A stretch of 28,119 bases of DNA from Deltaproteobacteria bacterium (GTDB taxonomy: Bacteria; Desulfobacterota; Desulfobacteria; Desulfobacterales; Desulfosalsimonadaceae), in assembly GCA_024280875.1 (NCBI GenBank), contig JAJRPH010000087.1:1-28119 (forward strand). Reading direction: 5' to 3'. Below the pieces are notes generated by a model. It did not search any database. It was not told where the DNA came from and worked only from the letters and a program-made list of their open reading frames with translations. Below are positions 8,480 to 25,298 of this stretch, one piece after another. Position numbers and translations under genes: made by a program. Within the stretch, counting starts at the first letter, position 1. Each line of letters starts with the position of its first letter.

Positions 8480-8560
<81 letters not shown>

Positions 8561-8876: not shown

Positions 8877-9998
8877 TCAAAAAACGGGGAGCCCTTCAGC
8901 GATGTTGAGCAGCTCAGGGAAAATATAAATAGCTGACCGTCTCCCACTGGCTTTGCGGAGTGTTTTTATGATGCCACTATCCCTCAATACCCTTATAATC
9001 CTTTTTGTTGTAGGTGCAGGGATTGCATCACAGGAATTAAAGTCTGTTGCTTTAAAAACCGGACGAGAAAAAATGAAATCAAGGGCATGGATACCATATT
9101 GAGAGTGGGTTAGCTCAATAATAAAGCTCTTTTTCTTTTCATAAAGTTCCAATATGGCTTCAGTTTTTTCCAAATTTTCCTTTGCCTGTTCAGCAACAGC
9201 ATGCAGAAAAAACTTACACCACTGCGTCCAGTCATTATCCTTGGAAATTAATAGTAATCGCCGATAGTATTCATCACGATTTGCCTCAAAATACGCACTG
9301 ATGTAAAACAATGGGCGCTGGATAAGACCTTGTTCAGTCAAATAAAGCGGCACAAGCATTCTCCCTAAACGGCCATTTCCATCAAGAAAAGGATGCAACG
9401 CTTCAAACTCAGCATGGAGAACACCAAGCTGAATCAACTTATCTGGCTCATTAGAATGAATATATTTCTCCCAATTACCCATAGCTTCCGGCAATTTTTC
9501 TGAAGATATAGGAATGAAGCGGGCTTCATCAATTGAGCAGCCTGGAGGGCCAATCCAATTTGAGTTTTTGCGGTATTCCCCCGGAGCCTTCCCGTGTCCC
9601 CTAACACCATCAAGAAGAATTCCATGGGCTTGCTTAATAACACGCTGACATAAAGGAAGGTTTGCTAATGCCCGTTCAGCCTCCCACATTGCTTTTCTAT
9701 AATTGAGAATTTCATTAATATCGCCTTTTTTCTCCTCTGAAATACCCTCTGCATCTTCTTCAGCTTCATATTCAAAAACCTCCCCCATAGTAGCCTGTGT
9801 ACCCTCAATTCTTGAAGAAAGAACAGCCTCTTGGGTTGTTAATGGGGTTAGCAAAATATTTGAATTAGGGATCGCTGACAATTTCCCATCATACCTCGCC
9901 AGAGCATCATGGGCAGGGCCGATTAATGGCAAGAGCTCCCTGTAATCAATATTGTTTGGCGGGAACCGGTCATAATGATAGTGAGTAGGCACACTCAT
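8877..9998 (-). CDS. Fic-family AMP-transferase, class II (internal inhibitory helix), with C-terminal HTH-like domain
   Basis: Complete HPFLDGNGRLGR motif. N-terminal SSRIEG matches (S/T)xxxE(G/N). Basic helical C-terminus. Confidence 0.93.
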   Translation of the reverse strand: MSVPTHYHYDRFPPNNIDYRELLPLIGPAHDALARYDGKLSAIPNSNILLTPLTTQEAVLSSRIEGTQATMGEVFEYEAEEDAEGISEEKKGDINEILNYRKAMWEAERALANLPLCQRVIKQAHGILLDGVRGHGKAPGEYRKNSNWIGPPGCSIDEARFIPISSEKLPEAMGNWEKYIHSNEPDKLIQLGVLHAEFEALHPFLDGNGRLGRMLVPLYLTEQGLIQRPLFYISAYFEANRDEYYRRLLLISKDNDWTQWCKFFLHAVAEQAKENLEKTEAILELYEKKKSFIIELTHSQYGIHALDFIFSRPVFKATDFNSCDAIPAPTTKRIIRVLRDSGIIKTLRKASGRRSAIYIFPELLNIAEGLPVF

Positions 9999-10335
9999 TT
10001 TTTCAACCTCTGTCTAATGACATTGTTCAACTAAGAATAATAAATCTAACCCCTTTGGATTTTAATAAATATATTCTAAACTAACATAAATTCAATGTTT
10101 TTTTCCCGACTTGCCCAGAGATTGAAAAGACAAACCTATTATAGATATTCCCCAACCCCCAACAAAAAACCGAACAATCGCCACCTCGACAACCCGATTA
10201 TTTTTATTATAGTGCCTGTTTTTATTTATAAAAACAATTGTTTTCCAATGAGAATTACTCTAACTATATAAAATGCATATTTTAAGTCTCCGAAAAATCG
10301 ACTAAAATAAAAAGGGTATTTAAGCAAAAAACAAT

Positions 10336-13245
10336 ATGCAACTGACGCCTTATCATGCCAAATATTTTGCCTACGAACTGACCAAACGGAGTTCATCAAA
10401 CAGTATCCAAAAACTGGCGGCATCCCTGTTGGATGCCCAGGTGGATTTAAATCCCCATCAGGTGGAAGCCGCCTTGTTTGCCTTCAAATCGCCTCTTTCA
10501 AAAGGAGCGATCCTTGCCGATGAAGTGGGGCTTGGCAAAACCATTGAAGCCGGGATTGTGATTTCCCAGAAATGGGCTGAACGAAAAAAGAAAATTCTTA
10601 TTATCGTACCTTCAAGCTTGCGGAAACAATGGGATCAGGAGTTGCTTGATAAATTTTTTCTTCCGTCGCTTATTCTTGAGACCCCCGCCTTTAATCAGGA
10701 AATCAAAAAAGGGAACCTCAACCCCTTTGTTCAGGAACAAATCATCATCTGCTCCTATCATTTTGCACGATCCAAGGAACCTTATATCACACAAATAAAC
10801 TGGGATTTGGTGGTGATTGACGAAGCCCATCGACTGCGCAATGTGTATAAGCCCGCCAACAAAATTGCGAACGCCATCAAAAGAGCCGTTTCTCATGCCC
10901 CAAAAATTTTGCTTACGGCAACCCCTTTACAGAACTCACTTCTTGAGCTGTATGGCCTTGTCAGTATTATTGATGATTATACATTCGGGGATTTACAAAG
11001 TTATAAAAATCAGTTTTCCCGACTGACAGGAGAAGACAGCTTTGATGATTTAAAAAATCGTCTGAAACCTGTTTGCAAAAGAACCCTTCGCCGGCAGGTG
11101 CTGGAATATATAAAATTCACCAACCGACTGACCATAACACAGGAGTTTATTCCTTCTCCGGAAGAACAGCAGCTTTATGATCTGGTGTCATCCTATTTAC
11201 AGCGCAATAACCTCTATGCCCTTCCTGCCGGCCAGCGCCAACTCATGACCCTTATTTTGCGCAGGCTGCTTGCCTCATCGACATTCGCCATTGCGGGCAC
11301 CCTTGAAGCTCTGGCAACAAAACTTGAAAATATCGAGGGCCTTTTCAACCGGCAAACGGAAATGGAAACCCTCATTTCAGATGATTTTGAAACATATGAT
11401 GAACTCTGCGATGAATGGCCGGCCGAAGAGTCCGACGAAGAATCCGACGCAAAAACCGACCCGGCCCTTTTCCGGAAGCAGGAGAAGACCTACACCCCGG
11501 AAGACATCGAATATATTAAACAAGAAATCCGCGATTTAACTGAATTCAAGCAGCTTGCCAGGTCCATCACCAGAAATTCAAAAGGGGAAGTCCTTCAGAC
11601 CGCATTAAAAAAAGGCTTTTCAGAAATAGAACGTCTCGGGGGCCGACAAAAAGCGATTATTTTCACGGAATCCCGCCGCACGCAGACATACCTCTTCAAT
11701 ATTTTGGAACAAACGGAATTTAAAGGCAGGATCATATTATTTAACGGCACCAACACGGACCCGCTTTCCCGGAAGATTTACCAAAAATGGCTTAAAAAAA
11801 ATAAAGGCACGGATAAAATTTCCGGCTCCAAAACAGCCGATATGCGGGCCGCCATTGTGGACTGTTTCAGGAATGAAGCGGTCATCATGATCGCCACTGA
11901 AGCCGCCGCCGAGGGGATCAACCTTCAATTCTGTTCCATTGTGGTGAATTATGATCTGCCCTGGAATCCCCAGCGCATAGAGCAAAGAATCGGAAGATGT
12001 CACCGGTACGGGCAGCAGCACGATGTGGTGGTGATCAATTTCCTCAACAAAAATAACGCGGCCGACCAGCGGGTCTATGAACTCCTGTCGGAAAAATTCA
12101 GACTTTTTTCCGGTGTTTTCGGAACCAGCGACGAGGTTCTGGGAAGCATTGAATCCGGTGTTGATTTTGAAAAACGGATTGCCAGGATTTATCAGAATTG
12201 CAGAACTATAGATGAAATCCAAACCGCTTTTGATGCCCTCCAAAAAGAACTGGAGGACCAGATTGAAAACCGCCTCACGTCCACCCGGCAGAAACTGCTG
12301 GAAACCTTTGACGAAGAAGTCCATGAAAAACTGCGTGTGAATTTGCTGGAAAGCAGGGCGTATATTTCAAAATACGAAAACTGGCTCTGGCAGATCACCC
12401 GGTATTATCTGGAGCCCCACGCCCGATTCGATGACAGCGGCCATTGTTTCACCCTGATTCAAAACCCGTTTCCCAATGAAAAAATACATGCCGGGCCTTA
12501 CAGAATCGGCAGAGCTGTTGACGACGCAAATATTTACAGACTCGGCCATCCGCTGGCCCGGAAAATAATCGCGCAATGCAAGGCGGCGGACCTGTATTTT
12601 CATGAACTGATTTTCAATTACACGGATACCCACATAAAAATCTCCATCATAGAGCCGCTGATCGGCAAATCCGGCTGGCTTGAAGTGTCTTGCCTGACAA
12701 TTCATTCTTTTGAAACCGAAGATCATGTTCTATTGTGCGGTATTTCCGATGACGGTTTGAAATTAGAATCTGAACAGTGTCGGAGACTCTTTTCGCTTCC
12801 GGCAACCGTTACCACTGGCAGTTTATTCAATGCCTCCCCATCGGTCACCGGTCAATTGCAGCCGATTGCCGATAAAATGCAAACAAAAATCTTACAGCAC
12901 AATGCCGAGCGGGACTCGGAGTTTTTTGATATTGAAATGGACAAACTTGAAAAATGGGCCGATGACGTAAAATGCAGTCTTGAAATCGAGCTGAAAGCAA
13001 TAGATAAGGAAATAAAATTCCGGAAAACCGAGGCAAAAAAAATCCTGAATCTGGAAGACAAGGTAAAGGCCCAGCGGCAGATCAAAGACATGGAAAAAAA
13101 ACGAAACACCCTGCGCATGAACCTTTTTCAGGCCCAGGATGATGTGGATGTCCGGAAAGAAAAACTGATCGATGATATTGAGGCCCGGCTTTCCCAGGGG
13201 ATTGAAAAAACCGGGTTGTTCCTGATACGGTGGCAGATTGTATAG
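10336..13245 (+). CDS. SNF2/RapA-like SF2 helicase-ATPase with C-terminal coiled coil
   Basis: LNPHQ, ADEVGLGKT, VIDEAH, LTATP, TEAAAEGINLQ, NYDLPWNP and EQRIGRCHRYGQ motifs. Heptad-rich C-terminus. Confidence 0.93.
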   Translation: MQLTPYHAKYFAYELTKRSSSNSIQKLAASLLDAQVDLNPHQVEAALFAFKSPLSKGAILADEVGLGKTIEAGIVISQKWAERKKKILIIVPSSLRKQWDQELLDKFFLPSLILETPAFNQEIKKGNLNPFVQEQIIICSYHFARSKEPYITQINWDLVVIDEAHRLRNVYKPANKIANAIKRAVSHAPKILLTATPLQNSLLELYGLVSIIDDYTFGDLQSYKNQFSRLTGEDSFDDLKNRLKPVCKRTLRRQVLEYIKFTNRLTITQEFIPSPEEQQLYDLVSSYLQRNNLYALPAGQRQLMTLILRRLLASSTFAIAGTLEALATKLENIEGLFNRQTEMETLISDDFETYDELCDEWPAEESDEESDAKTDPALFRKQEKTYTPEDIEYIKQEIRDLTEFKQLARSITRNSKGEVLQTALKKGFSEIERLGGRQKAIIFTESRRTQTYLFNILEQTEFKGRIILFNGTNTDPLSRKIYQKWLKKNKGTDKISGSKTADMRAAIVDCFRNEAVIMIATEAAAEGINLQFCSIVVNYDLPWNPQRIEQRIGRCHRYGQQHDVVVINFLNKNNAADQRVYELLSEKFRLFSGVFGTSDEVLGSIESGVDFEKRIARIYQNCRTIDEIQTAFDALQKELEDQIENRLTSTRQKLLETFDEEVHEKLRVNLLESRAYISKYENWLWQITRYYLEPHARFDDSGHCFTLIQNPFPNEKIHAGPYRIGRAVDDANIYRLGHPLARKIIAQCKAADLYFHELIFNYTDTHIKISIIEPLIGKSGWLEVSCLTIHSFETEDHVLLCGISDDGLKLESEQCRRLFSLPATVTTGSLFNASPSVTGQLQPIADKMQTKILQHNAERDSEFFDIEMDKLEKWADDVKCSLEIELKAIDKEIKFRKTEAKKILNLEDKVKAQRQIKDMEKKRNTLRMNLFQAQDDVDVRKEKLIDDIEARLSQGIEKTGLFLIRWQIV

Positions 13246-13400
13246 AAAAACAGGACATTTTTTACTTCACTCGAAAACGGAAAAATGTGTAAAACCTTTT
13301 AAAATCAAAATATTGTTACTTCATTTACAAGGACCCGAGTTCGACGTCCTCAAAATTCGCCGAGTACATTCCTTACTGGGCATAAAGATAAAGAGGAATT

Positions 13401-15113
13401 ATGACCAAACAAAAACTGGAACTGACCTGGATCGGCAAGGAAAAACAGCCGGTGCTGGAACCCCGCATTCTTATTGAAGACCCGGAAAAATCATACGGTG
13501 ACAAGACCGCTGAAAACATGCTGATATTCGGTGATAACCTGCTGGCGTTGAAAGCGCTGGAACAGGATTTTGCGGGAAAAATCAAATGCGTGTTTATTGA
13601 TCCACCGTATAATACAGGATCTGCCTTTGCCCAATATGATGATGGAATTGAACATTCGTTATGGCTGAGCTTAATACGAAATCGCTTAGAGATATTACAT
13701 AGGCTTTTAAAATCAGATGGTAGCATATGGGTGACATTAGATGACAATGAAGCTCATTATTTTAAGGTGATGTGCGATGAAATCTTTGGAAGGCATAATT
13801 TTATTGCAGATATAGCTTGGAAAAAGCGCGACAGCCCTCCAAATGACAGAAAAATTGGATCTATTAACGATCACATTTTAATCTGGTCAAAAGGCTTTAA
13901 GGTGGGCAGTAAAAAGACATTAGCAGAAGAATCATTCAACCTCATGCAGAGAACAGAAAAAGCCGATTCACAATATCAAATATGGAAGGAGCCGGATGGG
14001 CCAGACCCACGAGGACCTTTTCGTAAAATCGATACGACAGCTCATGGGAAAGGTGGCCGTTTTGTTAAAAGTTTATTTTATCCAGTAAAAAATCCTTATA
14101 CAGGCGAAGAAGTATGGCCAAGGGAAGGATGCTGTTGGAGGCATAATAAAAATGATATGGAGCGATTACAGTCAGAAAAACGAATATATTGGGGAGTTAA
14201 AGGGACCGCTAAAACTCCAATGAGAAAGTATTTTAAATTTGAAGCCAAACAGGGTATGTGTGCTCCTACTATTTGGGATAATGTTGGCCTTAACCAACAT
14301 GCTTCTCGTGAGCTTGAAATTCTATTTGAGAAGAAAGCGTTTTTCGAAACACCGAAACCAGAATTCTTGCTTAAAAGAATTTTTGAAATGGCAACCAACC
14401 CAGGAGACTGGGTTCTTGACTCATTTTTAGGCTCTGGAACCACCGCAGCAGTAGCCCATAAAATGAACCGCCGCTGGATCGGCATTGAACTCGGAGACCA
14501 CTGCCACACCCACTGCCTGCCGCGCCTGAAAAAGGTTGCCGACGGCACGGACCAGGGCGGAATTTCCAAGGCGGTCAACTGGAAAGGCGGGGGCGGGTTT
14601 AAATATTATTACCTGGCCCCCAGTTTGCTGAAAGCGGATAAACACGGCAACTGGATCATCGACGAGCGCTATAACGCGGATATGCTGGCTGCGGCCATGG
14701 CAAAGCATGAGGGGTTCAGGTACGCACCTGATCCGGATATTTACTGGAAACAGGGCCAATCAACAGAAAAGGACCATCTCTTTACCACCACCCGGTTTGT
14801 CACCATTGAATTGCTGGACAAGATCCATGAAGAAATGCAACCGGATGAGAGTCTGCTCATCTGCTGCAAGTCTTTTTCCAAATCCTGCGAAACACGGCAT
14901 GCCAATATCACCGTCAAGAAAATCCCCAACATGCTATTGGGTAAATGTGAATTCGGCCGGGAAGATTACAGTTTCAATATCATCAATATGCCGGTTGATG
15001 ACAATGCCCCTGACTTTGTGCCGCCCGGCCCAACGGAAAAAAACCCAAAAAAGACCAAAACCTCAACATCCAACAAGCAAATGGAATTATTCAAACAAGA
15101 GGATAAGCAATGA
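13401..15113 (+). CDS. mod: Type III restriction-modification methyltransferase (beta-class, N6-adenine type)
   Basis: 'GDNLLAL', DPPY (motif IV), central TRD, 'TPKPE', 'VLDSFLGSGTT' (motif I). Overlaps the res start (ATGA). Confidence 0.93.
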   Translation: MTKQKLELTWIGKEKQPVLEPRILIEDPEKSYGDKTAENMLIFGDNLLALKALEQDFAGKIKCVFIDPPYNTGSAFAQYDDGIEHSLWLSLIRNRLEILHRLLKSDGSIWVTLDDNEAHYFKVMCDEIFGRHNFIADIAWKKRDSPPNDRKIGSINDHILIWSKGFKVGSKKTLAEESFNLMQRTEKADSQYQIWKEPDGPDPRGPFRKIDTTAHGKGGRFVKSLFYPVKNPYTGEEVWPREGCCWRHNKNDMERLQSEKRIYWGVKGTAKTPMRKYFKFEAKQGMCAPTIWDNVGLNQHASRELEILFEKKAFFETPKPEFLLKRIFEMATNPGDWVLDSFLGSGTTAAVAHKMNRRWIGIELGDHCHTHCLPRLKKVADGTDQGGISKAVNWKGGGGFKYYYLAPSLLKADKHGNWIIDERYNADMLAAAMAKHEGFRYAPDPDIYWKQGQSTEKDHLFTTTRFVTIELLDKIHEEMQPDESLLICCKSFSKSCETRHANITVKKIPNMLLGKCEFGREDYSFNIINMPVDDNAPDFVPPGPTEKNPKKTKTSTSNKQMELFKQEDKQ

Positions 15114-17782
15114 ACAAAATCGCAACCTCCATCAAAAACCGTTTGAGTCTGCGCCCTCCGCAAGCCGAAAGTTTGAATATCCTGACGGAACTTGCCGACA
15201 AGCTGGCGCTGACTAAAAATGTTGATCTGCCGTCCGAGCTTGAAAAAGTCAAAACCAAATACCCCACATGTACGGATTTTGAGCGGGATTTCCCGTCGCT
15301 GTGTTTTGCCCTTGCCACGGGGGTGGGCAAAACCCGGCTCATGGGCGCGTTTATCACCTACCTTTTTTTGGCAAAAGGATTTAGAAATTTCTTTGTACTT
15401 TCGCCGAATCTGACAATTTACGAAAAGCTGATCACAGACCTTTCGGAGCCGAATAACCCCAAATATGTATTTAACGGGATCGGTGAATTTGTGCATCAGC
15501 GTCCCCGGATTATTACCGGTGATAATTACAAGGATTTTCGTCAATCACTGATGTTTGACAAATCTGAAATCAATATCAGCCTGTTTAATATTTCAAAAAT
15601 CAATGCTGAAACCCGAGGCAACGCGATTCCCCGGATTAAGCGAATGTCCGAAGTATTGGGCGAACCGTATTTCAATTATCTGGCAGGTCTGGAGGATCTG
15701 GTCTTATTGATGGATGAATCCCACCACTATCGGGCGGCCCGGGGCTTGCAGGTCATTAATGACCTTAAACCGGTCCTGGGCATAGAACTGACCGCCACTC
15801 CGCAAGTTGAACAGCGCGGCAACGCCATCAAGTTTAAAAATGTCGTGTATGAATATTCACTGGCAAAAGCCATAACAGACGGGTTTGTCAAAGAACCGGC
15901 CGTCGCCACCCGCAAAGATTTCGATCCGACACATCATTCAGCCGAAGAAGTTGACAGAATCAAACTGGAAGACGGCATCCGCCTGCATGAAGATACCAAG
16001 GTGGCCCTTGATATTTATTCACGAGACGCCAGAGTCCACGCCGTTAAACCGTTTGTGCTGGTGGTTGCAAAAGACACCCGGCATGCCGCCCAAATAAAAG
16101 ACCTGATTGTTTCAACGTCATTTTTTGAAGGATATTATGCGGACAAGGTCATGGAAATTCATTCCAATCAAAGGGGCGGAGAAAAAGAGGAAAACATCGC
16201 ACTGCTTATTTCTCTGGAGAATCCGGACAACGTCATTGAGATCGTCATTCATGTAAATATGCTCAAAGAAGGATGGGACGTCACCAATCTGTATACCATT
16301 GTTCCGCTTCGCACCGCTGCTTCTCAAACCCTTCGGGAACAGACCATCGGCCGGGGACTCCGGCTGCCATATGGGAAACGGACCGGAAGCGACAAAGTAG
16401 ACAAATTGACCATTGTGGCTCATGACCGGTTCCAGGAAATTGTGGATGAAGCCAACCGGCCGGATTCCATTATCCGCAAGGAAAATATCATTGAAATTGA
16501 TCCTGAGGAATTGGCGCAGCAAAAAGAAGTCGTCACCGCTGTTTCAACGATTGACCAGAAAATCCTGGATGAACAGGTAAGGATTGAAACTATTGTCGAA
16601 CCCGAAAAAAAACAAAACGCCCAAATCAGCCTGGATTTGCAGAAAACCATTCTTTCCACCCTTCCTGAATTAAATACATCAGTCAAAAACATCCAGGACC
16701 TGACACGATCGGAAATTAAAGTCATTGCCGTTGAAAAGATCAAACAGAAAATCTTCAGTTCTCCCCAGAAAGTCCTGTTTGCCCAGCAGATGATTAAAGA
16801 AGTTGAAGACGCCTATGACGCAATGGTTCATGATTTTGTGGCAAACATTATTGAAATTCCGAGGATTACCATTCAGCAAAGTGAAGATATCCGGTCCGGT
16901 TTTCATGATTTTGATCTGGATGTTAAAAATTTGAATTATCAACCGGTATCCGAAGAAATTCTGGTGAAAAAACTGCGGGAACAGGAAAACAGCATCGACA
17001 TTGTGATCGGCAAAGGGCGGATCACCCCGGATCGCCTGGATAATCTCATTGTGAACGAACTGATTAATTTTCCGGAAATTGATTATGATGTTTGCGCGGA
17101 TCTGCTTTTTCAATTAGCCGGGCAGTCAATTGATAAATTTAAAATCTATCTTGATGATGAACGGATGACGAATGTCGTTCAGTATCATAAAAGAGAAATC
17201 GGGCAATATATTTACGCTCAGATGATGGCGCATTTTTATTGCGAGACCCCGACATTTCAGGCGCCCGTCGTTAAACCGTTTACCCGAATCGAGGAACACA
17301 ACTTTTCAAAGTATTCCAAAGACAGCATCCACCATTATACCGAAACCATCGTGCCGACCAACGCCATTCCGAGCAAGGTGTTTTCCGGTTTTAAACGGGC
17401 CTGCCATACCTTATATAAATTTGATTCAAAAACAGAAAAAGATTTTGCCGTTATTCTGGAACAGGATAACGCGGTGCTCAAGTGGCTGCGCCCGGCCGGA
17501 AACCAGTTCCATATTTACTGGAAACACAACACCAAACAATATCATCCGGATTTTGTGGCGGAAACCGCCGGCACCATCTACCTGATTGAAACCAAAAAGG
17601 AGAAAGATATTGATACGGCCGAAGTCCGGGAAAAAGCGCAGGCCGCCCTTACCTATTGCCGACACGCCACCGAATTCACCACACAGAACAACGGCAAGCC
17701 ATGGAAATACGTATTAATCCCCCATAATGCGGTTCTAACTAATATGGGCTTTGATACGTTGGTAAAGAATTTTGAATTTTAA
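15110..17782 (+). CDS. res: Type III restriction endonuclease/helicase subunit
   Basis: ATGVGKT, DESH, ELTATP, EGWDV, QTIGRGLR helicase motifs. C-terminal 'YHPDFVAE...LIETK' PD-(D/E)xK nuclease motif is intact. Confidence 0.93.
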   Translation: MNKIATSIKNRLSLRPPQAESLNILTELADKLALTKNVDLPSELEKVKTKYPTCTDFERDFPSLCFALATGVGKTRLMGAFITYLFLAKGFRNFFVLSPNLTIYEKLITDLSEPNNPKYVFNGIGEFVHQRPRIITGDNYKDFRQSLMFDKSEINISLFNISKINAETRGNAIPRIKRMSEVLGEPYFNYLAGLEDLVLLMDESHHYRAARGLQVINDLKPVLGIELTATPQVEQRGNAIKFKNVVYEYSLAKAITDGFVKEPAVATRKDFDPTHHSAEEVDRIKLEDGIRLHEDTKVALDIYSRDARVHAVKPFVLVVAKDTRHAAQIKDLIVSTSFFEGYYADKVMEIHSNQRGGEKEENIALLISLENPDNVIEIVIHVNMLKEGWDVTNLYTIVPLRTAASQTLREQTIGRGLRLPYGKRTGSDKVDKLTIVAHDRFQEIVDEANRPDSIIRKENIIEIDPEELAQQKEVVTAVSTIDQKILDEQVRIETIVEPEKKQNAQISLDLQKTILSTLPELNTSVKNIQDLTRSEIKVIAVEKIKQKIFSSPQKVLFAQQMIKEVEDAYDAMVHDFVANIIEIPRITIQQSEDIRSGFHDFDLDVKNLNYQPVSEEILVKKLREQENSIDIVIGKGRITPDRLDNLIVNELINFPEIDYDVCADLLFQLAGQSIDKFKIYLDDERMTNVVQYHKREIGQYIYAQMMAHFYCETPTFQAPVVKPFTRIEEHNFSKYSKDSIHHYTETIVPTNAIPSKVFSGFKRACHTLYKFDSKTEKDFAVILEQDNAVLKWLRPAGNQFHIYWKHNTKQYHPDFVAETAGTIYLIETKKEKDIDTAEVREKAQAALTYCRHATEFTTQNNGKPWKYVLIPHNAVLTNMGFDTLVKNFEF

Positions 17783-18052: not shown

Positions 18053-18087
18053 AAGGGGACTGGAATTTTTTCCAGTCCCCTTTTTTT
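18053..18087. terminator. Strong hairpin terminator, likely the original tRNA-Asp terminator; may also end the FHA gene transcript
   Basis: 13-bp stem AAGGGGACTGGAA / TTCCAGTCCCCTT, T run downstream, A-rich upstream. Confidence 0.85.
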
Positions 18088-18185: not shown

Positions 18186-18740
18186 TTATTTGAAGATAAA
18201 AAAACCAACGACAATCAATGCAAAGATCACTCCGCCCCATAAAAGTAACTGGCTGATTGACAACCCGGGGTCTTGTGTGTTTACGGTAGGCCCGTGAGCT
18301 TTCTGATTTGACACATTCGGCTGATCATTTTCGATTCTGGCGCGCAATTGGGCCAGTTGTGTGGAACTCAGAACCGTTGTGCCATCAAAATCATCCAGTG
18401 AAACGCTGTTTTTTTTATGCTCTGATGTGTCTGGCAATTCGATTGTCACCCGCAGAGAAAACTTGCCAAGACTGATGACATCATCGTTCTTCAAAGCAGC
18501 TTCATTAATCTGCCGGTTATTCAGAAAGGTGCCATTGGTACTGCCCATATCCTTAACGATATAGGGGCCGCCGATGGATCTCTCAATCCGTGTGTGTTGA
18601 CGTGAAATCCCATTGTTATCGATAAAAATATCCGCCGTGGGGATACGGCCGATTTCCACGACATCCTGTTTAAAAGCAAAGGTTTTTAGGATGTTATCCT
18701 TTATAGCCAGCTCAATTTTCAATACCTGATCATTACGCAT
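18186..18740 (-). CDS. FHA-domain protein with C-terminal transmembrane anchor
   Basis: 'IGR', 'ISRQH', 'DMGSTNGTFLN' FHA signature. C-terminal 'LLLWGGVIFALIVVGFFIFK' helix. GGAG RBS. Confidence 0.9.
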   Translation of the reverse strand: MRNDQVLKIELAIKDNILKTFAFKQDVVEIGRIPTADIFIDNNGISRQHTRIERSIGGPYIVKDMGSTNGTFLNNRQINEAALKNDDVISLGKFSLRVTIELPDTSEHKKNSVSLDDFDGTTVLSSTQLAQLRARIENDQPNVSNQKAHGPTVNTQDPGLSISQLLLWGGVIFALIVVGFFIFK

Positions 18741-18815
18741 TGGTTGCTCTCCAGGGTTGGTTAGGCAATATGCTTCTTGAATTAGAAAAGGAATAAGTTT
18801 TTTATTTTGCTATAT

Positions 18816-18845
18816 ATTATAGGGTATAAAAAAAAAATATGTCAA
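18816..18845 (-). promoter_or_regulatory. Perfect-consensus sigma70 promoter of the FHA gene with a T10 tract in the spacer
   Basis: Minus strand TTGACA (18845-18840)-N18-TATAAT (18821-18816). The spacer contains a 10-nt homopolymer (18828-18837). Confidence 0.75.
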
Positions 18846-18997
18846 GTTTTATCCTGTGTTCGCCCCTTTATCCGTCATGAATCACTGCTTATAAATATGA
18901 TTGATGTTTCACCCATGATGCGATAAGATAACAGATTCATGATGATAAAAATTCTGTTGGATAAAATCAAAAATCGGATCAGCCTCAGGTACGGAAT

Positions 18998-19837
18998 ATG
19001 AATCATTTAAAATATGGTTTCAGCACAAATGTGGGTAATGTCCGCTCTCATAACGAAGACTATTTTCGTACCGAGCCTGAATTGGGACTTTGGGTTGTTG
19101 CAGACGGTATGGGAGGGCATAAAGGCGGTGAAACTGCATCCGCCATTGCCGCCGACTTTATTGTTGATAAAACCAAAGCGGGAAAACCTTTAGAGACATC
19201 GATTGCACAGGCGCATCACGCCATTAAACAGGCAAGCAAGGAAGGTAAAGGACCTGAAGGGATGGGAACAACCGTTGTGGCCCTTAAAATAAATGATAAC
19301 GACTATGAGATTGCGTGGGTGGGTGACTGTAGGGCATATCTATGGGACGGCATTACGCTGAAACAGATGACAAAAGACCATTCTTACGTCCAGCACCTTG
19401 TAGATACCGGTGTAATATCCGTCAGCGAAGCAGCCAACCATCCATATCAGGATGTTCTTATTCAGGCACTGGGGGCCGCTGATATCAAAGATGTGAATGT
19501 GGAAACAATTCACAATGAATTTCATCAGAATGAACAGATCCTGTTGTGCAGTGATGGACTTACCAAGGAGATAACTGATAAGGGCATTGCCGATGCACTG
19601 GCCCTTGAATTAAAAGAGCAGGAAAAAGTGGATCTGCTGATCCGGACTGCCGTAAATAATGGCGGAAAGGATAATATCACCGCCATACTGGTTTCCGCAG
19701 ATGATGATGCCCCTGTCAGAATGCTGATTGGCGACACAGTACCCATTAATACACAAGAATCAATGCCAACCGGTTTAGCTGAGAAACTGATTTCCTGGCT
19801 GAAACGGACATTTAAGGTATTTTTATCAACCAAATAA
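18998..19837 (+). CDS. PP2C/PPM-family Ser/Thr phosphatase (Stp1/PrpC-like)
   Basis: 'RSHNED', 'VADGMGGH', 'MGTT', 'WVGDCRAY', 'TKDHS', 'LCSDGL', 'GGKDNIT'. Confidence 0.96.
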   Translation: MNHLKYGFSTNVGNVRSHNEDYFRTEPELGLWVVADGMGGHKGGETASAIAADFIVDKTKAGKPLETSIAQAHHAIKQASKEGKGPEGMGTTVVALKINDNDYEIAWVGDCRAYLWDGITLKQMTKDHSYVQHLVDTGVISVSEAANHPYQDVLIQALGAADIKDVNVETIHNEFHQNEQILLCSDGLTKEITDKGIADALALELKEQEKVDLLIRTAVNNGGKDNITAILVSADDDAPVRMLIGDTVPINTQESMPTGLAEKLISWLKRTFKVFLSTK

Positions 19838-19858
19838 AAATGATCCGATACAAATTTT

Positions 19859-22800
19859 ATGATTGAGATTCCCAATTACGAAATCGGAAAACTGGCCGGC
19901 CGCGGCGGTGTTGCTGAAGTATATCTTGCAAGACACAAATTACTGGATCGAACGGTTGCCATAAAAGTCATTTTCCCCACCCAGGCGGACGACCAGGCGG
20001 ACAAACGATTTTTAAAAGAAGCAAAAGTGGTTGCCGGGCTCCGTCACCCGAATATTGTATCCATTTATGATGTCGGTGTTTATGAAAATAAATATTACAT
20101 CATCATGGAATATCTGGAAGGAGGCGACCTCAAACAAAACGTTCAGCGGACCCTCGCAATTCCTCAAACGCTTAAAATCATACGCCAAATCACCTCTGCG
20201 CTGGGCCATGCCCATGATAAAGGCTTTGTTCATCGCGATATCAAATCCCAAAATATCATGTTTCGCGCCGACGGCACGGCTGTTCTCACAGATTTCGGTA
20301 TTGTCAAAGACCTGACAGCAGATTCAGGCTACACGCTTGACGGAACCAGCATCGGCACTCCGCACTATATGAGTCCTGAGCAGGCTCAGGGAACGGAAGT
20401 TGACTGGCGGACGGATATCTATAGCCTGGGCGTCACTTTTTATGAAATGCTCACGGGGTCAGTCCCCTATAATGCAGATTCCGCTATTGCCGTCGCTCTT
20501 AAGCACATTAAAGATCCTGTGCCCCAGTTACCGGAACAATTTGCCAGCTTTCAACCGCTCATCGATAAATTAATGGCTAAAAATCCCGATGACCGATTCC
20601 AGTCTGCCCAAGACCTGCTTCGTGCCATCAGCGAACTTGATGGCGAAGGTCTTCCGAACGAGACCGTCGTGATGAAGCACAAATCTTTACAAAAGGTGAA
20701 CCTTTCCAATATTCTTTTCGGTGTGTTAGTTGGCTGTCTCATCGGCGGACTCATGTTCCTGAGCCAGCCGTACTTCTCCCGTTTCATTGACCGACAAAAC
20801 ATTACCGAGACGCAGACTGCAAAGGGTCCACACGTTAAATCGGCGACCCAGAATCCGAAAAGACCTTTTCTGGATGCAATCAAAAAGAATTGGACGACTT
20901 CTGTCGACTCGAAAGAGTTAACTGACTTAATCGTAAAAAAAGATTATTCAGAAGCGCTCACTTACATTTCACAAATCCGGAAAGAGATGCCGGCGACATC
21001 CAACGAAATGATACAAAAAGCGGATCGGTTTATTGAATCAAAGCAGAATATGAATGCCGGAGATATTTATAACACGGTTTTGTCTGTTGACCCGCAGAAC
21101 ACATCGGCACTTATGGGACTGCTTTATGTGGCCATCGAAAAACAGCAGGCAATGGCGACAAATCAGAGCCCATCGATTGCGGAATATGACGCCTTACTGG
21201 CATTATTAAACAAAGCGATCAATAACACCGATTCCCAATATTTCAAACAATTGAAAATCGAGTCCGTGGAGTCTGTTTATGAATTCGCCCGCCATCAATT
21301 GGAACAGCAGCGTTTTCAACAGGCCGGCATATGGGTGAAAACAGGATTAAAAAATGCACCGGATCATTTGCGGCTGAAAAAACTCGGTTATCTCATCCAG
21401 GCCCAAATCAGTATTAATGAAAACCGCCTGACTTTGCCGGATCAGGATAATGCGCTGGCCTATTACCGGAAGGTTCTACAGATAGATCCGGATGATCAGG
21501 CCGCCAGGCAGGGAATCTCCCGCATTAGCGACAAGTACAAAACCATGGCATTAGACGCCCAGAAAAAAAACAAATACAACGAGGCGGTCCAGCTGATCGC
21601 AAAAGCCCGATCGATTGTCCAAAACGACCCGGGTTTACAGATAACCGAGTGGCTTATCTTAGGGGATATGTATGCTTCAATGGGACAGTTCAATACGCCT
21701 GAAAATAAAAATGCCCGGCATTTTTATCAAAAAATTCTGGCACAATCTCCTCAAAACAAGCAGGGAATCTTGCGGATCGCCAAACTTAAAATGCTCATTC
21801 CTCTTTATCAGGTCCGACAGACAGATACGATTTCTGAAAAAATGCCTGCCTACAAAACACTCCTTTCAGAGTTGGATTCCGCCATTACCGAACATGGCCC
21901 GGAGAATATGGCAGATTTAACGCATCAGGTGACTGACCAGATAAAAGAAGACATGCAAGCCCAAAAGAAACGGAAGCAGACCATTCCGGCAGAATTCATG
22001 ACGCTGGTATCCAGTCATTTCCCTGACGAGAATGAAATTTTTAATACACAGTATGAAATATTGATTGCAAAAGGTGCTGAAAGTACTTCGAAAATGGAAA
22101 AAACGGAGTATTACTTAAAGGCACTGAAACTAAACCCGGTCCCTTTACCGGCAAAAGAAAAAATTGAAAAGATTGCAAACGATCTGGACAACCAGGGAAA
22201 AACAAATGACGCCCAGGCTGTATTGAAACAGGCCATGGATATCGCTCCGAAACATGCACCGTTTAATGAGATGTTTCAAACGAACCGGAAAATTCAGGAT
22301 ACAAAAGCGGAAATCTTCACCTTGCTGTTAAAAATCAAACGGATCCATACATTATCGGAAAAAGTTGAGCTTTATCACGCGGTATTTTCAAAGCTGAAAT
22401 CCTCTACCAAGCGGTTTGGCCAAAAAAAAATAAAGAATTTGAAAAATGATGTAACCGACCAGATTAAAACCGATATTAAAGCCAGAAAAAACAGCCGACA
22501 AACAATCCCGGTAAAATTCATGACGCTGGTTGAAAATGATTTTCCCGAAATGAATGCGTATGTGGTCAATGCCCAATATGAAATATTGATTGGAAATGGC
22601 GATAAAAGCGCCTCAAAAAAGGAAAAAGCGGAGTATTACCTGAACGCTTTGAAATTAGATAAAAAACGGGTGAAAGCAAAAAACAGCATTATTTTGCTTG
22701 CGAAAAATCTGGACAAAAATAAACACAATGAAGAGGCGGTGGCTGTTTTACAAAAGGCGACGGCTGTTTCACCAAATGATTTGATATTTCGTCAATTATC

Positions 22801-23137
22801 TGACAAAATCAAACATATGGTTGAAGTATTTGCCACAATTTCCGGATGTGCGAAAGAGAACAGGATTACTAAGGTACCGGTTTCCATTGAGAATCTGAAT
22901 CTTTGCATTCATTACCGGAATCTGGACCCTGACAGCGTAGTCAATATTGTCTTAACTCAAAAAAACGGCCAGGCCATGGAAATCCCCGTGGTCTTAGATG
23001 AGAGTTCCGGCAGTAAACCAATGGACATCGTCGCCCCGATCGAAGGATTCGCGCTGGGCGAATACTCGATTTCAATCAGACAAGACGAAAAAATATTATC
23101 AGAAGCACTGATACAATTTATACCCAAACGGAGGTAA
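19859..23137 (+). CDS. Membrane Hanks-type Ser/Thr kinase with a large TPR-like extracytoplasmic region
   Basis: GRGGVAEVY, VAIK, HRDIKSQN, DFG, GTPHYMSPE. TM helix near 20700-20775. Helical repeats after it. Confidence 0.95.
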   Translation: MIEIPNYEIGKLAGRGGVAEVYLARHKLLDRTVAIKVIFPTQADDQADKRFLKEAKVVAGLRHPNIVSIYDVGVYENKYYIIMEYLEGGDLKQNVQRTLAIPQTLKIIRQITSALGHAHDKGFVHRDIKSQNIMFRADGTAVLTDFGIVKDLTADSGYTLDGTSIGTPHYMSPEQAQGTEVDWRTDIYSLGVTFYEMLTGSVPYNADSAIAVALKHIKDPVPQLPEQFASFQPLIDKLMAKNPDDRFQSAQDLLRAISELDGEGLPNETVVMKHKSLQKVNLSNILFGVLVGCLIGGLMFLSQPYFSRFIDRQNITETQTAKGPHVKSATQNPKRPFLDAIKKNWTTSVDSKELTDLIVKKDYSEALTYISQIRKEMPATSNEMIQKADRFIESKQNMNAGDIYNTVLSVDPQNTSALMGLLYVAIEKQQAMATNQSPSIAEYDALLALLNKAINNTDSQYFKQLKIESVESVYEFARHQLEQQRFQQAGIWVKTGLKNAPDHLRLKKLGYLIQAQISINENRLTLPDQDNALAYYRKVLQIDPDDQAARQGISRISDKYKTMALDAQKKNKYNEAVQLIAKARSIVQNDPGLQITEWLILGDMYASMGQFNTPENKNARHFYQKILAQSPQNKQGILRIAKLKMLIPLYQVRQTDTISEKMPAYKTLLSELDSAITEHGPENMADLTHQVTDQIKEDMQAQKKRKQTIPAEFMTLVSSHFPDENEIFNTQYEILIAKGAESTSKMEKTEYYLKALKLNPVPLPAKEKIEKIANDLDNQGKTNDAQAVLKQAMDIAPKHAPFNEMFQTNRKIQDTKAEIFTLLLKIKRIHTLSEKVELYHAVFSKLKSSTKRFGQKKIKNLKNDVTDQIKTDIKARKNSRQTIPVKFMTLVENDFPEMNAYVVNAQYEILIGNGDKSASKKEKAEYYLNALKLDKKRVKAKNSIILLAKNLDKNKHNEEAVAVLQKATAVSPNDLIFRQLSDKIKHMVEVFATISGCAKENRITKVPVSIENLNLCIHYRNLDPDSVVNIVLTQKNGQAMEIPVVLDESSGSKPMDIVAPIEGFALGEYSISIRQDEKILSEALIQFIPKRR

Positions 23138-23142
23138 ATTTT

Positions 23143-23973
23143 ATGCGATGGATATTTCTGTTTATTCTGGTTGCCATGACAACCATCGGATGCGCTGCGA
23201 ATTGTCAAAAAGTTCAACAGCAGTTGGATGCATGCCAGGCAAAACTGACGGATAATGATTTTGTCATCAAAAAACAGGAATCGACAATCCGGCAGAAGAA
23301 TCAGGATATCGCCGAACAAAAAGAGGCCATTGAAAAGATGGGCATCGATATTGCCGAGTTAAACAGGCGGTTAAATATCAGTTACAATGAAAAAGGACGA
23401 TATGATGAACGCATCAAAAACATTGCGTCCTCAGTCCGGGAATACATCAAACAGCAAATGCGGGACAATCGCAACTTCCTAACCGGAATCGCCTTGGAAG
23501 ACTTTATCGGCAATGAATTAATCGAAAGAGCCCATTCCGGTGATGAGAAAATGCTTATTATTGACATGGCCCACCCCATTCCCAGCGGCGGACAGATAAA
23601 CGGAATCAGCGGATATTTTACAGTTTCAGCCAACATTACCATTAAATTACTCCGCCCGGTGGGCAATGACTATATAGTAATCTACGACAAGCAGATACGG
23701 GTTGATGCAGATGAACCCGGTAAAAAATATATCGATTTTGGCAGCCCGTTTATTGCAAAAAAAGGCGATGTGATTGCCTTCTATTTTCCCGGCCCCGTCA
23801 ATGTACCATATGACAGCGATATCGGCACTAATACATATTCAAAGATGAAATCGGATAAATACGCACACGGGGACCGGATCGCAGCTGAAGATATTTGGCA
23901 AAGCGACCAGGTCAAAAGAAAGTATTCTTTAAATTACTATGGCATTTTTTATACAAGGGTTGATTCAGAATAA
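23143..23973 (+). CDS. Putative lipoprotein: coiled coil plus beta-rich C-terminal domain, function unknown
   Basis: Signal peptide ending TIG-C (lipobox-like), heptad-rich segment, GGAGG RBS overlapping the kinase 3' end. Confidence 0.75.
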   Translation: MRWIFLFILVAMTTIGCAANCQKVQQQLDACQAKLTDNDFVIKKQESTIRQKNQDIAEQKEAIEKMGIDIAELNRRLNISYNEKGRYDERIKNIASSVREYIKQQMRDNRNFLTGIALEDFIGNELIERAHSGDEKMLIIDMAHPIPSGGQINGISGYFTVSANITIKLLRPVGNDYIVIYDKQIRVDADEPGKKYIDFGSPFIAKKGDVIAFYFPGPVNVPYDSDIGTNTYSKMKSDKYAHGDRIAAEDIWQSDQVKRKYSLNYYGIFYTRVDSE

Positions 23974-24014
23974 GGAATAATCAAAACTGCTGATTATTTA
24001 ATGAAAATAGAGAC

Positions 24015-24908
24015 ATGGCCCAGCAAACAAAACATTTAACAATATTATTTGCTGATATTTCAAAAAGTTCTGTTATTTATGAACGATTGGGAGATCAGGC
24101 AGCGCAGGAGATTGTCGGAACGATACTGAATCGTCTGACTGATTTAACGGTTAAATTTGAAGGAAAAGTAATTAAGACTGTTGGCGATGCGATTATCTCT
24201 ACTTTTCCTTCAACCGACGATTCAATTGAAGCTGCCAAATCCATGCAACTTGCAATGTCAGACGACTGTACCCCTCTCCAGATCAACATACACATCGGGA
24301 TTCATCATGGCCCGGTTGTTATTGATAATGAAGATATTTTTGGCGATGCGGTCAATGTAGCCTCACGGGTAGTTGATTATGCCAATCCGCGACAAATTGT
24401 CGCCACCCGGGCTGCGGTTAAAAATCTGCCGGAGGACTCCAGCCATTTTACAAAATACATCACCAAAATAACAGCCAAAAATATTTCCGGTGAACTGGAA
24501 CTGTTTGAAATTATCTATGAAGACCAGAACACGACAATGGTGATCGACTGCCGGGAACTCTCAAAAGCCATTCGTTCCAGCCTGTATCTGATGAGGGGCG
24601 ACCACCTCATTGTTGTGGATGTCCAAAAACCTGTGGTCTCCATCGGCCGTGAGGATTTTAATGACATTACCATTCAATATTCATGGATTTCCAGGACCCA
24701 CGCATATATTGAAAACCAAAATGGCGTGTTCATGATAAAGGACAAAAGCACCAACGGGACTTTTATATATCCGCAAGATGCCGATCCCATATACGTAAAT
24801 AAAGGGGAACACCCGCTGTCCGGAAAAGGGCTGATTATTTTTGGCCGGGAAAAAGAACACAAGATGACCAGTGTCCTAACGGACACGATTGAATACAACA
24901 TCAAATAA
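24015..24908 (+). CDS. Class III adenylate cyclase fused to a C-terminal FHA domain
   Basis: 'LFADIS', 'KTVGDA', 'IGIHHG', 'DIFGDAVNVASR' cyclase motifs. 'IGR', 'ISRTH', 'STNGTFI' FHA motifs. Confidence 0.92.
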   Translation: MAQQTKHLTILFADISKSSVIYERLGDQAAQEIVGTILNRLTDLTVKFEGKVIKTVGDAIISTFPSTDDSIEAAKSMQLAMSDDCTPLQINIHIGIHHGPVVIDNEDIFGDAVNVASRVVDYANPRQIVATRAAVKNLPEDSSHFTKYITKITAKNISGELELFEIIYEDQNTTMVIDCRELSKAIRSSLYLMRGDHLIVVDVQKPVVSIGREDFNDITIQYSWISRTHAYIENQNGVFMIKDKSTNGTFIYPQDADPIYVNKGEHPLSGKGLIIFGREKEHKMTSVLTDTIEYNIK

Positions 24909-24931
24909 CATCAGAACGGGAGGAGGCCACG

Positions 24932-25165
24932 ATGATGGAAAAAAAATTTAAACAGGTCTGTGAATGTGAAAATTGCGGAAACGAAGCAGAAATGACCATC
25001 ACCTGCACACTCATACCGGAAGAAGATGAATCTACTCCAAAAGCAAAGACTGTAGCGCCTTCGGATCATAATCATAAAAAAATTAAAGGACACGCAGTAT
25101 GCAGTCAGTGCGGCGGAGAAGCAGATATATGGATTGATGATATTGAAAACCTTCAGGAAATCTGA
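24932..25165 (+). CDS. Small Cys-rich protein with two CxxCGxEA repeats (possible zinc or iron ribbon)
   Basis: CENCGNEAEMTI and CSQCGGEADIWI. Strong GGAGGAGG RBS. Confidence 0.8.
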   Translation: MMEKKFKQVCECENCGNEAEMTITCTLIPEEDESTPKAKTVAPSDHNHKKIKGHAVCSQCGGEADIWIDDIENLQEI

Positions 25166-25298
25166 TCCACCCATTCGCTGTGTTATAAGTGCTTCGCAGT
25201 AACAGACTACAACATCACTCCTTTTTAAAATATAATCTGACTTTCATTATACCGAAATTTCCGACACCTGTTAATCCACTTCGTGAAAGGAAATAAAT

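Follow-up and report, generated by a model that had tools for sequence, protein, structure and literature searches.

A candidate trans-envelope Ser/Thr phospho-signaling module in Desulfosalsimonadaceae that combines a receptor kinase, a stalked lipoprotein and an FHA-fused adenylate cyclase

The gene cluster

The window analyzed here is the whole 28,119-nucleotide stretch of contig JAJRPH010000087.1 (assembly GCA_024280875.1), part of a metagenome-assembled genome (MAG) of the family Desulfosalsimonadaceae. Between positions 18186 and 24908 it holds five open reading frames (ORFs), whose coordinates stand as they were first annotated. The initial annotation saw in them a writer of phosphothreonine (a kinase), an eraser (a PP2C phosphatase), two readers (FHA domains), a lipoprotein and a cyclase, a composition that Pfam domain assignment and motif analysis support in full. 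One gene, for an FHA protein with a transmembrane anchor (FHA-TM), is transcribed divergently from the other four, which form a run on the + strand with gaps of 21, 5 and 41 nt between PP2C, kinase, lipoprotein and cyclase-FHA; the GGAGG (Shine-Dalgarno) sequence of the lipoprotein gene sits within the final kinase codons. The features of the locus are:

18053 to 18082, bidirectional: terminator-like hairpin with a 13-bp stem, downstream of the FHA-TM gene at the left edge of the module
18186 to 18740, - strand: FHA-TM protein, 184 aa (Pfam FHA, E 5e-19), divergently transcribed
18369 to 18383, - strand: codons G120-T121-T122-V123-L124, invariant in the FHA-TM linker; candidate phospho-acceptor and FHA-binding site (pT-x-x-L)
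18816 to 18845, - strand: sigma-70-like promoter of the FHA-TM gene, 12/12 consensus, a pattern match only
18998 to 19837, + strand: PP2C Ser/Thr phosphatase, 279 aa (Pfam PP2C), head of the + strand run
19859 to 20668, + strand: Hanks-type kinase domain, residues 1-270 of the 1092-aa receptor kinase (Pfam, invariant motifs, AlphaFold2 model)
20708 to 20761, + strand: single transmembrane helix of the kinase, residues 284-301 (translation and AlphaFold2 model)
20906 to 22810, + strand: all-helical TPR-like repeat region of the kinase, residues 350-984, predicted to be periplasmic (Pfam, model)
22811 to 23137, + strand: C-terminal seven-stranded β-sandwich of the kinase, residues 985-1092, with stop codon (model, hidden Markov model)
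23143 to 23973, + strand: lipoprotein, 276 aa, with lipobox and without Pfam or NCBIfam family
24015 to 24518, + strand: catalytic domain of a class III (IIIc-like) adenylate cyclase, forming residues 1-168 of cyclase-FHA (297 aa) (Pfam, solved relatives, invariant residues)
24531 to 24545, + strand: codons T173-T174-M-V-I177 in the inter-domain linker of cyclase-FHA; candidate phosphosite
24612 to 24908, + strand: C-terminal FHA domain of the cyclase, residues ~200-297, with stop codon (Pfam FHA)

Catalytic and phosphothreonine-binding residues

The initial annotation had judged the enzymatic and phosphothreonine-binding motifs of all five genes to be intact, and alignment with orthologs upholds this, the residues concerned being invariant in 16-23 sequences. 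The kinase gene (19859-23137, +) combines a Pkinase match (E 1.2e-53) with TPR matches, and G14/G16/G17, K36, E54, H125-R126-D127, K129, N132 and D145-F-G are unchanged in 22-23 orthologs; by these catalytic subdomain motifs the protein is a Hanks-type Ser/Thr protein kinase. Its activation-loop residues T159, T163 and T167 are likewise invariant. The phosphatase matches PP2C_2 (E 6.6e-13), one of three such matches in the genome, and keeps D21, D36, G37, D186 and D225 in 20 sequences, so that its metal-coordinating Asp residues place the product of 18998-19837 in the PP2C (PPM) family; because it scores 216.6 bits against the Stp1/IreP equivalog model, under the cut-off of 230, the assignment holds at family level only.

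FHA-TM consists of an FHA domain (residues ~20-98), a variable linker and a C-terminal hydrophobic membrane anchor (~163-183). Its phosphothreonine-binding residues G31, R32, S46, R47, H49, S67, N69 and G70 are invariant in 16 orthologs, and G211, R212, S226, R227, H229, S245, N247 and G248 are invariant among orthologs in the FHA domain of the cyclase; both domains thus carry the Gly-Arg, Ser-x-x-His and Asn-Gly signature and are predicted to bind phosphothreonine. Models of the YscD-type cytoplasmic FHA and GltG/TagH families match FHA-TM without reaching their cut-offs; the scores are 48.9 bits against TIGR03354 (TagH; cut-off 120.25) and, for a further model, 62.6 bits against NF041660 (GarA/OdhI; cut-off 200). 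The statement that the two FHA domains of the cluster are the only ones in the genome is true of this MAG, which is 84% complete, and was dropped, since near-complete relatives have 6-10 FHA matches.

The cyclase-FHA gene (24015-24908, +) matches Guanylate_cyc (E 1e-18) and FHA (E 4e-12). The six residues D14, K54, D58, D107, N114 and R118 are invariant in 19 orthologs and also in 47 distant members of the family, save for R118 (43 of 47), and the ATP-specifying pair K54/D107 is kept in all 19. These residues identify a class III (IIIc-like) adenylate cyclase predicted to make cyclic AMP (cAMP), in keeping with the second-messenger role originally assigned to it. Among proteins of solved structure it comes closest to the class IIIc enzymes Ma1120 (4wp9), Rv1264 (1y10) and Rv1900c/LipJ (1ybt), with which it has in common a short catalytic domain, a shortened arm and the six catalytic residues; by analogy, a homodimeric mechanism would be expected. 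The genome holds 2 class III cyclases together with 13 matches to cyclic nucleotide (cNMP)-binding domains, which are potential cAMP receivers.

Two Thr motifs outside the FHA domains stand out. GTTVL (G120-L124) is invariant in 16 of 16 FHA-TM sequences within a linker that is otherwise variable. T174 of the cyclase, just past the catalytic domain, is invariant in 19/19 orthologs and 47/47 distant members, always with I, L, V or M at position +3. Many FHA domains favor pT-x-x-[ILV] or, more broadly, pT-x-x-hydrophobic, and GTTVL and T174-x-x-[ILVM] are candidate phosphosites that would fit this preference and recall the double-Thr switch of GarA/OdhI.

Conservation across the family

When the five proteins were searched with tblastn against 26 loci in GTDB species-representative genomes, the kinase gene was found directly upstream of the lipoprotein gene, 7-11 nt apart, at all 25 loci where this could be assessed. 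PP2C was present in 19 of 21 assessable loci, cyclase-FHA in 19 of 23 (with position and orientation kept at identities as low as ~56%) and FHA-TM in 15 of 19. The synteny spans at least 5 genera at ~45-88% protein identity to the window, while the flanks vary between loci; a lack of co-conservation would have refuted the initial annotation, and this neighborhood survey shows no such lack. Within its genus the lipoprotein was detected in 13/13 genomes; beyond it, 4 of the family's 11 other genera have the protein, and a sample of 16 further families of the order gave no match. All contigs related to the cluster come from MAGs labeled Desulfosalsimonadaceae, Desulfococcus, Desulfobacteraceae or Desulfobacterales, so that the sediment organism may reasonably be taken for a sulfate reducer, as the initial annotation did; every carrier known to date is an uncultured MAG. 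Judged by this sequence conservation, the five-gene set is a genuine conserved module with a hard core of PP2C, kinase and lipoprotein, to which FHA-TM and the cyclase are common yet dispensable additions.

The kinase ectodomain and the lipoprotein

The kinase as modeled by AlphaFold2 from an alignment of 21 sequences, with a mean pLDDT (predicted local distance difference test) of 82.7, consists of the kinase domain (1-261), a disordered juxtamembrane segment, a transmembrane helix (284-301), a low-confidence linker, helical repeats and a β-sandwich. The helical repeats run without interruption over residues 350-984, with block pLDDT mostly of 83-96, and the β-sandwich of residues 987-1087 has seven strands. 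With this single-pass topology, the outer domain of about 800 aa postulated in the initial annotation is confirmed at the level of the model. Within the ectodomain a helical unit of ~165 aa is repeated in tandem (residues 642-805 and 816-980, window 21782-22798; 41% identity, E 3e-41); kinase orthologs of 957-1046 aa are shorter, and some may hold a single copy of this unit. No vWA domain was matched on the kinase by Pfam.

The lipoprotein carries MRWIFLFILVAMTTIGC and has a signal peptide ending in the lipobox TIGC with its lipid-site Cys17, which is invariant in 10 close orthologs and at least 90% conserved in a 60-sequence family alignment. The strict lipobox pattern fits many distant homologs, and most of the others end the signal peptide in a similar G/A-C; with a signal peptide and a lipobox ending in Cys, the 276-aa protein is a bacterial lipoprotein by the usual definition, and its lipidation is predicted. 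In its model (pLDDT 86.8, 60 sequences) a helix of ~97 residues (18-114), described as a coiled-coil stalk, is followed by a jelly-roll β-sandwich head (120-270). Searches for the protein gave no Pfam, NCBIfam or meaningful PADLOC match, and a fold search of the head returned generic jelly-roll or lectin-like sandwiches alone (PHR, discoidin, DUF4082-like, phage fiber tips) with query-side TM-scores below 0.5, so that no specific family can be named for it. An exhaustive profile search puts the family at 124 cluster representatives at 50% identity, most of them proteins of ~250 aa. The source names seen are all “hypothetical protein”, and likewise those of the Atlas clusters; named distant members belong to Alteromonadaceae and Syntrophotaleaceae. 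Matches in 4 of 401 evenly sampled Desulfobacterota genomes indicate a patchy rather than phylum-wide family.

In the lipoproteins of the window's clade, the lipid Cys17 is followed by invariant Cys21 and Cys31, and thiol-redox genes lie beside the kinase-lipoprotein pair in two unrelated lineages (locus L036, 7130-8639; locus L048, 4562-9565), with a glutaredoxin gene before the kinase and a 1-Cys peroxiredoxin gene after the lipoprotein at L048. The redox genes and the two Cys residues may point to redox sensing.

The β-sandwich and lipoprotein in distant genomes

Ten distant contexts of the lipoprotein were scored with a hidden Markov model of the kinase. In eight of them the ORF just upstream of the lipoprotein matches the kinase β-sandwich (model positions ~950-1092, E 6e-5 to 6e-15); the match is absent upstream of the lipoprotein at the other two, L049 and L055. 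At least 4 of the 8 have the β-sandwich at the end of a Hanks kinase that is seen in full, among them those of L048, L051 and L062 (739-986 aa). The upstream ORF is cut by a contig end at L061, where helical repeats are also seen, and at L047 and L063. At L060 the β-sandwich has an ORF of its own (162 aa), which separates an 835-aa kinase from the lipoprotein; at L053 the β-sandwich lies within a separate 352-aa protein flanked by kinases. Since adjacency holds even where the β-sandwich is split from the kinase, the β-sandwich is the lipoprotein's likely partner, and it is chiefly on this persistent adjacency that we base a joint periplasmic action of the two. The coupling of this kinase-derived β-sandwich with the lipoprotein crosses phyla, and its presence even in Gammaproteobacteria strengthens the earlier proposal of the lipoprotein as a co-sensor. 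A complex prediction with kinase residues 930-1092 and lipoprotein residues 18-276 scored 0.14 against a mark of 0.32, which is evidence neither way.

What surrounds the distant pairs differs. A GGDEF gene lies 354 nt downstream of the pair at L051, which is a weak link; Flp, prepilin peptidase and TadE genes lie near it at L047; and PP2C, three FHA proteins, T2SSF and T2SSE/MshEN lie near it at L060.

As a separate observation, a conserved cluster that encodes T2SSF, a T2SSE with an MshEN N-domain and three FHA proteins (TPRs occur in two of the latter) is found at L060 (5463-10534) and at L064 (5744-16258) in relative G002. At L060 it abuts the module of kinase, β-domain ORF, lipoprotein and PP2C, and in G002 it is followed by Pkinase-DUF4384 and caspase-domain proteins. 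It looks like an uncharacterized FHA-controlled type IV filament-like machine.

Discussion

We propose that the cluster is a trans-envelope Ser/Thr phospho-signaling module that leads from a kinase-lipoprotein sensor to cAMP, a model to which we would assign an even chance of being correct as a whole. In this model the sensor would consist of two proteins, a single-pass Hanks kinase with a helical arm and a β-sandwich, and a stalked jelly-roll lipoprotein, whose head or stalk would contact the distal β-sandwich of the kinase. An envelope change or a periplasmic ligand would alter this contact and switch the cytoplasmic kinase domain, which would then phosphorylate T121/T122 of the FHA-TM linker and T174 of the cyclase linker. 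The two FHA domains would read either those sites or the kinase's own phosphothreonines, and FHA binding could alter the dimerization, localization or membrane recruitment of the cyclase and hence, in one direction or the other, cAMP synthesis, with PP2C resetting the system. The sensing logic would resemble that of RcsF/IgaA, NlpE/CpxA and TagQ-TagR/PpkA, where an outer-membrane lipoprotein reports to an inner-membrane signaling protein.

A bolder version, which we consider possible though somewhat improbable, holds that the β-sandwich and the coiled-coil/jelly-roll lipoprotein form a new two-protein sensor of Desulfobacterota and Gammaproteobacteria with interchangeable outputs, and that a GarA-like switch at T174 sets cAMP. 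The outputs would be cyclase-FHA here, possibly a GGDEF protein, and Tad or T2SSE/T2SSF/FHA machines elsewhere.

Several observations weigh against the proposed model. The cyclase is missing from 4 of 23 loci, and three of these were examined: at L033 (10884-11747) and L042 (11054-11911) the gene directly after the lipoprotein encodes an α/β-hydrolase of ~285 aa that resembles class-2 lipases, and at L036 the lipoprotein is followed by a redoxin and then a cNMP-binding-rhodanese protein. Relatives of the cyclase at ~40% identity (two of them at 42-46%) are stand-alone genes in other Thermodesulfobacteriota, so that the enzyme need not depend on the cluster kinase; T174 is invariant in these relatives too and could equally be a structural residue. 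Five other Pkinase matches above the Pfam cut-off (6 in all) are found elsewhere in the genome, and near-complete relatives encode other FHA proteins (6-10 FHA matches). Placement of the lipoprotein in the outer membrane rests on the E. coli +2 rule, which may not hold in this phylum. A small share of the locus was present in one DNA sediment run, and the locus was present in no RNA run. The description of the circuit as “self-contained” was too strong, given the loss of the cyclase at 4/23 and of FHA-TM at 4/19 loci, the stand-alone cyclases, and the further Pkinase and FHA genes; its composition and the co-conservation of its genes stand, and the initial interpretation is partly supported. 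As for the hydrolase of L033 and L042, it may be an alternative partner or output.

These same facts lend themselves to a looser account, which we regard as unlikely though worth serious consideration: PP2C, kinase and lipoprotein would form the unit, and cyclase-FHA would be an independent soluble enzyme that came to lie beside the operon in this family, regulated by any of the cell's Hanks kinases or by none. The absence of the cyclase from some loci, its stand-alone relatives, the six or more Pkinase genes and the 41-nt gap before the cyclase, the widest of the + strand run, all fit this account. However, the position and orientation of the cyclase are kept in 19 of 23 loci, down to ~56% identity and in several genera, while the outer flanks change, and the cyclase carries a phosphothreonine reader, for which this very gene run supplies the nearest writer and eraser.

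Cyclase-FHA belongs to a large family (at least 676 members, from 676 matches at E ≤ 1e-10), whose named members are annotated “adenylate cyclase”, several of them “class 3 adenylate cyclase”, or “FHA domain-containing protein”. With so large a family and stand-alone members in it, the cluster's cyclase gives the impression of an FHA-regulated enzyme that existed beforehand and joined the kinase operon in Desulfosalsimonadaceae.

It is also conceivable, if improbable, that the main target is a surface or secretion machine (Tad/type IV filament-like or other) reached through membrane-anchored FHA proteins, as in the threonine-phosphorylation pathway of type VI secretion, with cAMP as a lineage-specific side output. 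The pair adjoins Flp, prepilin peptidase and TadE genes at L047 and a T2SSE(MshEN)-T2SSF-3×FHA cluster with PP2C at L060, relatives in the genus hold such a T2SSE-T2SSF-3×FHA cluster elsewhere in the genome, and FHA-TM has its sub-cut-off matches to YscD-type FHA and GltG/TagH models. Yet the T2SSE/FHA cluster of those relatives comes with a kinase of its own, genes of this kind are absent from the window and from beside the module in all 26 family loci, and the cyclase is the only enzymatic output that the module encodes.

Two further accounts we rejected as very improbable. The parts list of kinase, PP2C, FHA protein and lipoprotein, along with the weak TagH match, is that of a type VI secretion system (T6SS) threonine-phosphorylation switch (PpkA/PppA/Fha/TagQ-like), here apart from its T6SS genes. 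A Pfam scan of the window's ORFs agrees with the initial annotation in finding no secretion genes there, and the genome-wide check for T6SS and CRP-family effectors that it had called for gave no match to TssC (PF05943) in this 84%-complete genome, and the 13 matches to cNMP-binding domains mentioned above. Three of five module-carrying relatives, at 98-100% completeness, also have no TssC match, and in the relatives that do have a T6SS, FHA genes distinct from the module's lie ~1-2 kb from the TssC-like matches, on contigs other than that of the module. It is this missing linkage and co-occurrence, together with a TagH score of 48.9 bits against a cut-off of 120 and a kinase devoid of a vWA domain, that led us to discard a T6SS switch. 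Equally slim are the chances that the genes belong to the anti-phage island next to them, as a kinase-based defense or a Pycsar-like cyclase. That island (8877-17782), which lies upstream and encodes a SoFic-like Fic protein, a DrmD-like SNF2 helicase and a type III restriction-modification system (Mod/Res), does adjoin the module, the kinase domain matches PD-T4-6 and mad6 models, and the cyclase weakly matches PycC (best E 7e-10). However, these PADLOC matches cover generic kinase and cyclase folds only, the cyclase has the purine (ATP) K/D pair, and no effector activated by cNMP is adjacent. The island, which adjoins tRNA-Val and tRNA-Asp and begins at the tRNA-Asp gene (8480-8557), is a separate insertion unrelated to the module: its restriction-enzyme gene was not found flanking the module in the 10 relatives' loci searched for that gene, and in several relatives the module sits in a stable chromosomal neighborhood near citrate synthase and isocitrate dehydrogenase. 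With weak PycC and fold-level kinase matches, no effector gene and no restriction-enzyme gene beside the module in the 10 loci searched for it, the defense account was set aside.

Among described systems, the T6SS threonine-phosphorylation pathway of P. aeruginosa (PpkA, PppA, Fha1, TagQ/TagR/TagS/TagT; PMC5995506, PMC3953482) resembles the module in its membrane Hanks kinase with a periplasmic domain, PP2C eraser, FHA reader and outer-membrane lipoprotein upstream of the kinase. In contrast to that pathway, the cluster is not linked to T6SS genes and occurs in genomes without a TssC match, its kinase ectodomain is made of helical repeats and a β-sandwich instead of vWA, its lipoprotein comes from an unrelated, unnamed family, and the output it encodes is an adenylate cyclase. 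PknS of Xanthomonas citri is, like the cluster kinase, a Hanks receptor kinase that crosses the membrane once and has TPRs in the periplasm; in PknS this TPR region is needed for signaling (PMC13147305). PknS differs in having three TPRs, in acting on the extracytoplasmic function sigma factor EcfK and in having no FHA or cyclase partners; a partner lipoprotein is not mentioned in that paper (0 occurrences; PMC13147305).

With the outer-membrane lipoprotein to inner-membrane sensor relays RcsF/IgaA and NlpE/CpxA, the module would share a lipoprotein and an inner-membrane signaling protein with a large periplasmic domain, which makes an envelope-surveillance logic plausible. However, the proteins are unrelated to those of the relays in sequence and fold, a Hanks kinase takes the place of a two-component system as transmitter, and the interaction in our case is one that we infer. 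GarA and OdhI of Actinobacteria are small FHA regulators that work with a cognate Hanks kinase and have a double-Thr ETTS motif before the FHA domain. FHA-TM is likewise a small FHA protein with a double-Thr motif outside that domain (GTTVL), a motif that the cluster's Hanks kinase could phosphorylate and that the FHA domain of the same protein could then bind, but the motif is C-terminal to that domain, the protein is membrane-anchored and no metabolic enzyme targets are implied; an identity with GarA/OdhI was rejected on the position of the Thr pair, the anchor and an equivalog score of 62.6 against a cut-off of 200. Sequence databases contain fusions of FHA and cyclase domains, and Synechocystis Cya1 is an FHA-containing cyclase; the order in the cluster protein is cyclase then FHA, and genes for a kinase, a phosphatase and a second FHA protein accompany it. 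We know of no FHA-fused cyclase for which the regulatory input has been shown.

Kinase/PP2C/FHA sets, TPR receptor kinases, class IIIc cyclases and FHA-cyclase fusions are thus already known kinds. A full-text literature search found no description of the cluster's gene set or of a kinase-regulated FHA-cyclase, and the literature found does not describe the lipoprotein family tied to a domain of the kinase ectodomain across phyla, the combination with cyclase-FHA, the FHA protein with its membrane anchor or the pair of invariant Thr motifs. Many Gram-negative bacteria have Hanks kinases whose periplasmic domains are large, and ligands and outputs are known for few of these. The cluster offers a compact circuit in this respect, with a cross-phylum sensor pair, a PP2C eraser, two phosphothreonine readers with candidate sites and a measurable output, cAMP. 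Should the model prove true, it would show how Ser/Thr phosphorylation feeds into cyclic-nucleotide signaling in bacteria, provide a regulator for the family of FHA-fused cyclases and give a role to an unnamed lipoprotein family of ~124 clusters; should the bolder sensor-pair version be true, the cluster would be the first case to be worked out in which a Hanks kinase sets cAMP levels by way of an FHA-fused adenylate cyclase.

Neighboring genes

The downstream flank of the module carries the citrate synthase and isocitrate dehydrogenase genes (Pfam). Between these and the cyclase, at 24911-25174 on the - strand, lies a Phe-rich hydrophobic ORF of 87 aa, convergent with the cyclase gene such that the two stop codons are 2 nt apart. 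It is preceded by an 11/12 sigma-70-like promoter (25274-25246, -) and has tblastn matches in 4 relatives at 47-65% identity. The ORF falls into no family and may encode a small membrane protein or be spurious.

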